A stretch of DNA of 64,000 nt from Octopus vulgaris (lineage: Eukaryota), in the NCBI GenBank assembly GCA_951406725.2, contig OX597814.1, positions 76,074,001-76,138,000 of the forward strand, given 5' to 3'. This document shows positions 22,968 through 52,405 of the stretch, in pieces. The number at the start of each line of letters is the position of its first letter. Positions within the stretch are counted from its first letter, which is position 1. The notes under the pieces are model-generated. The model worked only from the letters and a program-made list of their open reading frames with translations, did no database searches and was not told the DNA's origin. The position numbers and the translations under genes are program-made.

Positions 22968-23622
22968 GGGCAAGACTTTCGCCTGTCCCCCCACCAAAAA
23001 AAACACCCTTTTTTAAAACTTTTTTTTTTCCCTTTTGAGCTACAGGGAATATGAATCTGCAAAAAAATTGGCAAAAATCGACATTTCTAAATTACCACCC
23101 CCATTTCCTTCATTTTAAACTTTTTTCAGAATCTTTTTTCTCTCAAAATATGTGGAAAAATACGGAGATTATGATTCTGAAAAAAATTTCCAAAAATCTT
23201 TGAAAAATTATTTTTAAGAATTTTTTCTTTTCTAAATATGTGGAAAAATACAGACATCAGGATTCAGACAAAATTTCAAAACCTTTCTGTACTTATGGTT
23301 ATGGTTTTAGGGTTACAGTTAGAGTTTTAGGGTTAGGGTTAGGGTTTTAGGGTTAGGGTTAGGGTTTTAGGGTTAGGGTTAAGGTTTTAGGGTTTGAGTT
23401 AGGGTTTTAGGGTTAGGGTTAGGGTTTTAGGGTTAGGGTTAGAGTTTTAGGGTTAGTGTTGTGGAAAAGTCAAAATTGAAGAAGTTGGGGTGGAAAAATT
23501 TTCACAATGCCGATTTTTGGCAATTTTCCGGAACCTCCATATCTGAAAACGGGGATTTTGGCAAAAAAAAAATTTTTAAATAAACAAATTTTTGAGAAAA
23601 CGGTGGGGGATACTCCTCTATT
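22968..23622. mobile_element. Non-autonomous insertion with inverted subterminal repeats carrying a telomere-like array
   Basis: Interrupts the mariner coding sequence. GTCCCCCCACC (~22984) mirrors GGTGGGGGATAC (~23602) and AAAATTGGCAAAAATCGACATT mirrors AATGCCGATTTTTGGCAATTTT. Confidence 0.65.
23293..23460 (+). repeat. Interstitial telomere-like array with a 20-bp higher-order unit TTTTAGGG-TTAGGG-TTAGGG
   Basis: Directly visible tandem repeat. Confidence 0.92.
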
Positions 23623-50591: not shown

Positions 50592-51327
50592 TAACTAATG
50601 TAGGATAAATTTTTTTTCAGGAAAAGAATTTTATCAATGGCCAGCATATCAAAAAATACCTTTAAAGGTTAAATTTATAAATAATTTACAAGATAAGGGC
50701 AAAAGAAAAATTCTAATGCCAAATATGCCGAAAAAAAGACAAAACTTTTCAATAACCATTATAATTTATGCATCTCGAAACAAACCGATAGAAATCTCTA
50801 AAAAATTTGTTATTACCGTATTGGTCCAATTTTGGGGTTAATTAATAAATTTTCCCCTCTTCAGTGGCAAATACGCGAGATATAAGTGAAATACTTACTC
50901 ACACCCATGGAAAAAGCAAGCACTAAGTCCAGAGCAGACCTAAGTACCCCAAATATATCCAAAATAGAAAAATTCTTTGGCACATCTCGAGACACGTGTG
51001 ATTCAAACTAGAAACTTTCACAGAATGAGAGAATCCGGAAGTGAAACACTATTCAATTTATAACTAATGTAGGATAAAATTTTTTTCGGGAAAAAAATTT
51101 TATCAATGGCCAGCATATCAAAAAATACCTTTAAATGTATTTGCCGCTGAAGAGGGGAAAATTTATTAATTAACCCCAAAATTGGACCAGTACGGTAATA
51201 ACGAATTTTTTAGAGATTTATATCGGTTTGTTTTGAGACGCATAAATTATAATGGTTATTGAAAAGTTTTGTCTTTTTTTCGGCATATTTGGCATTAGAA
51301 TTTTTCTTTTGCCCTTATCTTGTAAAT
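50592..51327. mobile_element. Tandem-plus-inverted PLE-type element, family F4, inside (TA)n
   Basis: Direct repeat 50592-50666 / 51060-51135 and inverted repeat ~50683-50874 / 51137-51327; (TA)n at both ends. Confidence 0.9.
51141..51198 (+). ncRNA. Type I hammerhead motif with G12>A (mirror at 50813-50870, minus strand)
   Basis: TTGCCG-CTGAAGA-GGGG...CCCC-AAAA-TTGG a CCAG-TA-CGGTAA. Confidence 0.75.
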
Positions 51328-51355
51328 ATATATATTTATATATATATATATATAT

Positions 51356-51858
51356 GAAAATACAAACTGGGACAAGAATGCAAAACATTTAGAAGACGAT
51401 ACAAAAAACACGGACAGGACATTCAAAGCCTTCGATCTTTAGTCAAGAACCGGATCATCCTTGCAATTTCGGCTGATTACTCTTGAGATTGCTTCGATCT
51501 GGCCAGCCCCAAAGGAAAATCTAAGCCAAGCACATTAGATTCTTTGGAAGAAAGCCTCGAATGTATACAAAACAAGGACAGAAAAATGGACGATGTTACA
51601 CGAATAAGAATACAAAAATACGTAAAAACAATAATGATAATAATAATAACAAAAACAGGACGTCACAGACAGGCGTCTTTCGACAGGACGAGTAAACTTT
51701 GAGCTGGCGTGTTAGAAAAATGCCTTAGGGCAGAGAGAAAAAAATGTGTCTTGCTGCGACGACTGCTAAGCACAAAAGGCCGGCAATCGGTCAGTCAGTC
51801 ATGTGTGAGGAGAAGAGAGAGGAAAAGAGGGACAGATGAATTAAGGGTGGGGGAGTCT
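51356..51858 (-). mobile_element. (TA)n-anchored element containing a multi-helix RNA with scrambled hammerhead parts
   Basis: Abuts (TA)n at 51327-51355 and is relatively CpG-rich; structured block at 51420-51563 (see findings). Confidence 0.6.
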
Positions 51859-52162: not shown

Positions 52163-52405
52163 CACGTAAAAGCACCATCCGTTCGTGGCCGTTTGCCAGC
52201 TCTGTCTGGCACCTGTGCGGGTGGCACGTAAAAAGCACCCACTACACTCACGGAGTGGTTGGCGTTAGGAAGGGCATCCAGCTGTAGAAACACTGCCAGA
52301 TCTGACTGGGCCTGATGAAGCCTTCCAGCTTCACAGACCACAGTTGAACCGTCCAACCCATGCTAGCATGGAAAACGGACGCTAAATGATGATGATGATG
52401 ATGAT
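52163..52405 (+). mobile_element. RTE 3'-UTR/tail fragment (also ~4180-4310, 24380-24560, 47455-47770, 51860-52075)
   Basis: GTGGTTGGCGTTAGGAAGGGCATCCAGCTGTAGAAAC...AACCCATGCTAGCATGGAAA...(GAT)n, as at 8860-9048. Confidence 0.85.

Follow-up and report, generated by a model that had tools for sequence, protein, structure and literature searches.

Does the minus strand at 51420-51563 of the window, by which we mean the whole 64,000-nt stretch of Octopus vulgaris DNA under analysis, carry a hammerhead ribozyme with rearranged parts, and can such a ribozyme fold within a single RNA molecule? A preliminary description of this locus had proposed a pseudoknotted hammerhead outside types I-III. Inspection of the sequence located every part that it listed where it had been placed on the minus strand. 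The strands follow one another in the order II, III, I, II', III', I', which departs from the nested circular order of types I, II and III, and an Rfam scan of the whole window returned no match. We consider it probable that the family represented by this copy carries a real hammerhead that folds in one molecule, with its core opened between A9 and G10.1 and a four-way junction at the opening.

Parts of the motif and state of the window copy

The motif lies in a 5'-truncated copy of about 490 nt (51357-51847, minus strand) of a ~720-nt non-autonomous, (TA)n-anchored Penelope-like repeat, with a 92-95% match to the longer copies at loci L006 and L019. The (TA)n run at the 3' end of the element (51326-51355) is the target site and is separated from the outer stem by 64 nt, close to the ~65 nt given in the preliminary description.

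The following features are all on the minus strand and are taken in its 5' to 3' direction. The 14-bp outer stem P0, whose pairing was seen in folds, opens the motif with its 5' strand at 51550-51563 and closes it with its 3' strand at 51420-51433. Next comes the Px hairpin (51509-51547), which has a counterpart at the equal place in the consensus of the Naiad and RT-element families discussed below; its 3' strand adjoins the 5' strand of stem II with a gap of 0. This strand, GGCTG at 51504-51508 with G10.1 first, is displaced to the 5' side of the ribozyme and pairs with the stem II 3' strand CAGCC at 51471-51475, where C11.1 is last (permutation z 4.7-7.7, 0/2000). It is followed by the 5' strand of an extra helix, designated NC (51495-51503, pairing with 51449-51457), by two nucleotides of a k-turn (51493-51494), and by GCAA-UC (51487-51492), which comprises the stem III 5' strand, U16.1 and C17. 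The predicted cut falls between 51487 and 51486, as the preliminary description had placed it, and the 5' ends of truncated copies pile up from that bond. On its 3' side lies the stem I strand TCAAGA (51481-51486, pairing with TCTTGA at 51443-51448; z 4.3-9.0). A linker between the far ends of stems I and II (51476-51480), 5 nt in this copy and about 2-8 nt across families, leads to the stem II 3' strand and then to GAAA-TTGC (51463-51470), which holds G12-A13-A14-A15.1 and the stem III 3' strand and pairs with GCAA-U. A 3-nt bulge and GA of the k-turn (51458-51462, assigned from sequence and family alignment), the NC 3' strand, the second stem I strand and the CUGANGA core strand (51436-51442) complete the motif, and A9 of the core leads into P0, not into stem II.

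In the window copy the core strand reads CTAAAGA, with G5 changed to A at 51440. The preliminary description had predicted a consensus of CTGAAGA at this place and a window copy inactivated at G5. Both predictions held: the 33 other aligned copies of the family all have G at 51440, with CTGA(A/T)GA as their consensus core, and G12 and U16.1 are present in 32/33 and 33/33, respectively. Since G5 is kept throughout, the window copy is the mutant and, unlike its family, departs from the hammerhead core letters. A further private lesion affects the non-bulged GA of the k-turn, which reads AA here, with G at 51494 in 32/33 other copies. With G5A and the k-turn lesion together, the window copy is predicted to be dead.

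Folding of this single copy was only modestly better than that of shuffled sequences (z -1.9), and nested folding recovered P0, Px and stem II only, as expected because the other stems cross.

A k-turn and a four-way junction could close the fold

The two linkers that the preliminary description had left unpaired turned out to pair with each other, extending stem III by the NC helix (z 3.1-6.2). A bulge of 3 nt with tandem G-A pairs separates stem III from this helix, and such a sequence is the hallmark of a k-turn. K-turns are defined and named according to the usual conventions (Kt-7, box C/D type). The focal, Naiad and RT-element families, all three gathered by DNA similarity, show a helix followed by a 3-nt bulge, tandem G-A/A-G pairs, a U-U, U-G, C-C or A-G pair and a second helix. 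The k-turn was overlooked in the preliminary description, and as read from these sequences it makes a fold in one molecule plausible. It is not universal: four published Naiads, insofar as their sequences were accessible, and one family of this genome have a plain bulge, a three-way junction or some other loop instead. An abundant family (L031, L047, L036) keeps the layout but carries a loop of non-standard kind where the k-turn would be, along with an extra helix of 10 bp.

We propose that stem III, the k-turn and the further helix of 8-9 bp would form one long bent hairpin. Its loop would hold the cleavage site, a stem I strand, the short linker, a stem II strand and GAAA, while its 3' flank would supply the second stem I strand with CUGANGA and its 5' flank the second stem II strand. 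The chain would thus be open between A9 and G10.1, and P0 and the Px hairpin would complete a four-way junction there. This would leave stem II able to stack on the G12-A9 pair. The three core stems all cross, and a threaded, knotted RNA formed on closure of P0 appears quite improbable to us.

In hammerheads A9 stands next to position 10.1, with at most 1-2 nt inserted, whereas here the stem II partner lies 5' of the motif. A viroid hammerhead reportedly has a one-nucleotide insertion at A9/10.1. The usual register is otherwise retained, each of stems I, II and III abutting the core correctly and covarying.

Covariation and chance controls

We searched the genome with a pattern that fixes the unpaired letters only, in motif order; its forward counts may list one place twice. 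This pattern gave 2,195 matches versus 26 for the reversed control, and a pattern with other cores gave 544 versus 19. From 96 distinct core positions in the collected loci, representatives were drawn by identity alone, with chance matches and broken copies kept, at three redundancy cut-offs that yielded 46, 31 and 21 sequences. The preliminary description had anticipated covariation in all of its five helices. Stems III, I and II (with the 5' partner) and the newly found NC helix exceeded permuted partners at all three cut-offs (z 3.1-9.3, at most 3/2000), and at 31 diverged representatives each of them gave 0/2000 permutations; covariation of P0 found no support in permutation tests. When the stem II partner was sought in its usual place directly after the core, pairing among the representatives was at chance level (z 0.4-1.5).

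In 22 hand-picked intact-looking copies, two-sided changes occurred in 87 cells versus 33 after shuffling, counts that are inflated by related sequences, and they affected 15 of 17 pairs; slid controls were far lower and collapsed. At least 12 of the 14 stem pairs were reached by 17 of the 31 genomic representatives, compared with none of the 118 metagenome loci among the matches listed (best 11) and none of 45 viral loci (best 10). Both sets of loci serve to gauge chance and say nothing about absence of the motif there. The G5 prediction, the excess over pattern controls, the covariation and the metagenome and viral controls show that the motif is more than chance.

For P0, neither the duplex energy (z -0.5) nor the four-way-junction score (z 0.7-1.0) differed from permuted between-family partners in this genome. 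This is probably due to the purine-rich P0 strands of most families and to decayed single copies. Sliding a copy's own 3' strand lowered the score to 4.3-5.1 from 5.5. Support for P0 as a predicted helix rests on the by-eye comparison of family consensus sequences. Two unrelated families gathered by DNA similarity share the layout, with GA/GA of the k-turn type and 0-nt gaps at the putative four-way junction: Px adjoins stem II and P0 adjoins A9 in the consensus of both. Since the GA letters of the k-turn belonged to the search patterns, only the families collected by DNA similarity test this element.

Relationship to permuted hammerheads

Non-circular permutations of the hammerhead, named SGC, CSG and GCS, have been described and validated (Eckert, Friedrich, Weinberg and Weinberg 2023, PMC10085705), and according to the accessible part of that report molecules with the S-G-C order cut themselves in vitro at the corresponding site. 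Type SGC (HRIMA-1 and variants) shares with our motif the S, G, C block order, crossing stems, a short I-II linker, typically 3 nt there versus 5 nt in the window copy, and a helix that ties stems I and II together on their outer sides, the "interaction" helix whose equivalent here is NC. The two differ in several respects. In type SGC, as far as the accessible text describes it, block C is uninterrupted and CUGANGA stays next to stem II with no known insertion of more than 1-2 nt, whereas here the stem II 5' strand lies upstream of everything else and A9/10.1 is the entry point of two helices. The k-turn connects the extra helix to both strands of stem III; for SGC this geometry was left open. 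Type CSG, known from two metagenomic sequences in the same source, likewise has the stem II 5' strand before the cleavage-site block, but there the whole CUGANGA block comes first and here just its stem II half. Finally, SGC forms were reported from metatranscriptomes only, with no permuted form mentioned for a eukaryote genome in the accessible text; here there are thousands of copies in animal retroelements.

Read in this way, the motif corresponds to the published SGC/CSG/GCS ring opened at a fourth place, inside the core. It would work like a hammerhead of the SGC/CSG ring, yet by its strand order it is a member of none of the six listed permutations. The proposal of a topologically new variant in the preliminary description must accordingly be narrowed: the S-G-C core order was already published and validated (PMC10085705), and what appears new is that the CUGANGA block is split, that a k-turn makes the link and that the setting is animal retroelements. 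A literature search, with subscription journals mostly outside its coverage, returned no split-core hammerhead, no permuted hammerhead in Naiads and no k-turn hammerhead in Penelope elements. The split breaks the rule stated behind the list of six permutations, namely that this block cannot be interrupted. Non-circular permutations, until now a matter of rare RNA circles in the environment, also gain a place in animal genomes, with copies in the thousands.

Focal family and other carriers

The focal repeat gave 3,977 first-look candidates in the genome. It is a ~720-nt non-coding unit found in tandem arrays, in inverted pairs and as truncated copies within (TA)n; the tandem units at locus L076 are spaced by ~723 nt and inverted partner copies occur at L016, L269 and L279. 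Insertion into (TA)n, 5' truncation, partial tandems and inverted copies are traits of Naiad/Penelope-like elements, and the published Naiads have (TA)n targets, partial tandems, inverted copies and a motif close to their 3' end (Craig et al. 2021, PMC8557442, as far as accessible). No GIY-YIG plus RT ORF was seen in the focal ~720-nt unit, and the ribozyme layout is all that it has in common with the Naiad family of this genome (L042/L229-L248). An autonomous partner of the focal family was sought in this genome and none was found. A Neptune-like GIY-YIG ORF near L053 proved to belong to a separate nested element. At L053:2295-3059 on the minus strand, the C-terminal GIY-YIG ORF of a canonical Penelope-like element lies in the (TA)n cluster of a split-core copy.

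The family L042/L229-L248 matches a published octopus Naiad 3' end almost letter for letter, with RT sequence upstream. A split-core hammerhead was further found 60 nt after the stop codon of an RT-encoding non-LTR element (L067:2281-2960; L249-L263, L294) with a restriction-like endonuclease motif, an RVT_1 match (E 2e-8), at least 40 matches and a putative four-way junction free of gaps. We take this carrier to be Hero-like. Its sharing of the layout suggests that the ribozyme was transferred between retroelement clades with common microsatellite targets.

Candidate permuted hammerheads in published Naiads

Naiads were reported to lack canonical hammerheads, and unexplained "HHR_core" and "HHR_half_core" matches were flagged in them (Craig et al. 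2021, PMC8557442). From the accessible portion of that material we parsed 22 of the 54 consensus 3' ends by eye, with seven names taken from file order. The split-core form was recognized in six of the 22, from two octopuses, a squid, a hydrozoan, a box jellyfish and an acanthocephalan. Each has its own P0 sequence, and the bend is a k-turn, a three-way junction or a bulge. Seven others have different non-circular permutations, three nematode ends being CSG and four arthropod ends SGC-like, and one further end is degenerate. A different motif was seen in three, and the five in which we saw no motif are all marked incomplete.

Among the CSG forms, Naiad-1, -2 and -3_Nbra (File S5) are clean by eye, with a stem I-II helix of 9-11 bp at the very 3' end of these nematode elements. 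The two metagenomic CSG sequences might themselves be Naiad-type elements. The SGC-like ends of Naiad_Smim and Naiad-1, -2 and -3_Dst (File S5) have long stems I and III, a stem II that is short or unclear, and up to ~400 nt between blocks S and G. Judged from these partially available sequences, the rearranged split-core wiring probably explains the reported absence of hammerheads in Naiads, and we offer it as a direct answer to this question. Two other conserved motifs were seen in the accessible consensus sequences. In Naiad-1_Chem, Naiad-2_Chem and Naiad-1_Skow, GGGTG ... CACCTGA surrounds two hairpins at the 3' end, at the place of the hammerhead, and three Clytia Naiads (File S5) have a motif that follows the stop codon and ends in CGAACCGGG.

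A pile-up of 5' ends at the predicted cut

We examined the 5' ends of truncated copies, counting the first nucleotide 3' of the predicted cut as position 0. Among the matches listed there were 67 distinct places truncated within -21 to +13, and at 57 of these the copy begins at 0 to +13 (p 3.5e-14), six of them exactly at 0. Of the same 67 copies, 19 start in 0 to +6 versus 4 in -7 to -1 (p 0.001). Extrapolation from 651 copies truncated within -21 to +13 on one strand puts their number in the whole genome at about 1,250. In an unbiased census, which took the first 80 of 96 distinct copies on contig C1, the picture was similar: 12 begin at 0 to +13, whereas 8 begin between +14 and +48 (p 0.003) and 5 between -35 and -1 (p 0.0004), or 0.86, 0.23 and 0.14 starts per nt. 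Two census copies scored at -3 were read as 0 by eye and excluded from the peak. The peak is strongest at +9, +7 and +2, where the local sequence is similar to the (TA)n target; part of its height is thus owed to microhomology. Of about 70 copies of the autonomous Naiad family among the matches listed, only 3 are truncated in this interval, all 3' of the cut (by eye). Contigs from four sequencing runs presumed to be RNA had higher depth 3' of the cut, a measure confounded by related families, and two deep contigs from two studies end at 51486; these are a weak hint of cutting.

We read the pile-up as a probable footprint of cutting in vivo. Canonical Penelope-like elements and non-LTR retrozymes have hammerheads of type I, likewise one per unit in non-coding tandem repeats, for which cutting of multimeric transcripts has been proposed (bioRxiv 10.64898/2026.07.22.740005; Frangieh 2024, PMC11167929). 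As far as the accessible text of these sources goes, those ribozymes are nested and often minimal, in contrast to the split core and crossing stems seen here, and no reads ending at the cut were found for the anole element, whereas here genomic 5' ends mark the predicted cut. We propose that the ribozyme would cut read-through transcripts of tandem copies once per unit, with the 5' end of the resulting RNA about 140 nt upstream of the element's 3' end. Reverse transcription, for which internal initiation has been demonstrated in the anole element (PMC11167929, accessible part), would start near the element's 3' end and stop at the cut, giving ~140-nt copies that are pared back to short stretches matching the target. 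Copies that are longer or in tandem would require a template left uncut, one re-ligated, or a jump across the nick. Since about 30 bp (P0 14, II 5, NC about 8, III 5) would hold the cut pieces together, re-ligation or crossing of the nick should be favoured.

Alternative explanations

The helices could be as proposed and cutting could still require two copies, as a domain-swapped dimer in tandem transcripts, or a protein of the element, because a fold in one molecule would thread a strand through the hairpin loop. The crossing of all three core stems speaks for this, as do the young copies in tandem arrays (L076) and the dimeric Penelope hammerheads that are said to exist. The published SGC forms are on the slow side (PMC10085705), and the anole hammerhead needed protein to cut (PMC11167929), both as described in the accessible parts of these papers. 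The shortness of the I-II linker, together with the k-turn, nevertheless suits a cage within one molecule. SGC and CSG constructs with a single copy were described as cutting during transcription (PMC10085705), and the published octopus Naiad, noted as having no pLTR in the accessible part of PMC8557442, keeps a complete motif. We therefore regard a dimer or a protein requirement as unlikely.

That the motif is a hammerhead-derived structure bound by the reverse transcriptase, with no cutting and with 5' ends that reflect (TA)n microhomology or stalling of the enzyme, strikes us as very improbable. It would fit the position of the motif, which at about 65-200 nt from the 3' end lies in a region bound by retroelement proteins, the 17 of 67 ends (matches listed) at the TA-like +9, and the finding in another element that hammerhead activity is dispensable for insertion in vitro (PMC11167929, accessible part). 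On the other hand, the catalytic letters are intact in the accessible published consensus sequences and in our family consensus, which were not chosen by the search pattern. The AAT just upstream of the cut attracts only 4 of the 67 ends among the matches listed against 19 in the 7 nt downstream (p 0.001), and most helices would have been opened before the enzyme reaches +13. It is scarcely credible that the motif is simply of type SGC, with 5 nt inserted after A9 and the GGCU of the 3' arm serving as stem II. In the focal family GGCT does stand 5 nt after the core and could form 4 bp with the stem II 3' strand, but it lies inside P0, and a stem II partner 3' of the core was rejected since in permutation it was no better than chance: in the set of 31 representatives, the top-scoring partner within 0-8 nt on the 3' side of the core gave z 1.3 (611/5000), compared with z 4.7 (0/5000) for the 5' partner.

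We hence retain the split-core hammerhead that folds in one molecule. With moderate confidence we extend this reading to a seventh hammerhead layout, opened in the core and held in a cage of k-turn and four-way junction, that would cut in vivo. Together with CSG and SGC forms, it would be the overlooked ribozyme of many Naiads in at least five animal phyla and would be common to an unrelated RT-element clade. Its nick would be reversible and would decide between short and full-length or tandem copies, since about 30 bp hold the pieces. If so, the 5'-end pile-up would represent genomic evidence that a hammerhead of Penelope type cuts the RNA being retrotransposed. The family would also provide natural short constructs bearing on how the k-turn closes the geometry left unexplained for SGC, and a ribozyme whose products stay paired could serve RNA circularisation designs.

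Other observations in the window

As the preliminary description had noted for neighbouring elements, ordinary hammerheads occur nearby. Both arms of the adjacent inverted-repeat element carry a type I hammerhead, at 51140-51200 (plus strand) and 50810-50876 (minus strand), with CUGAAGA, a 4-bp stem II, a short stem III and G12 changed to A in each; by eye, an intact-looking relative is present in the flank of L076. At 52312 on the plus strand, CTGATGA stands inside a short interspersed repeat of a common kind and GAAAC lies 26 nt upstream of it, possibly by chance. An interstitial telomere-like array at 23293-23460 consists of about 8 copies of a 20-nt unit of TTAGGG-like repeats.
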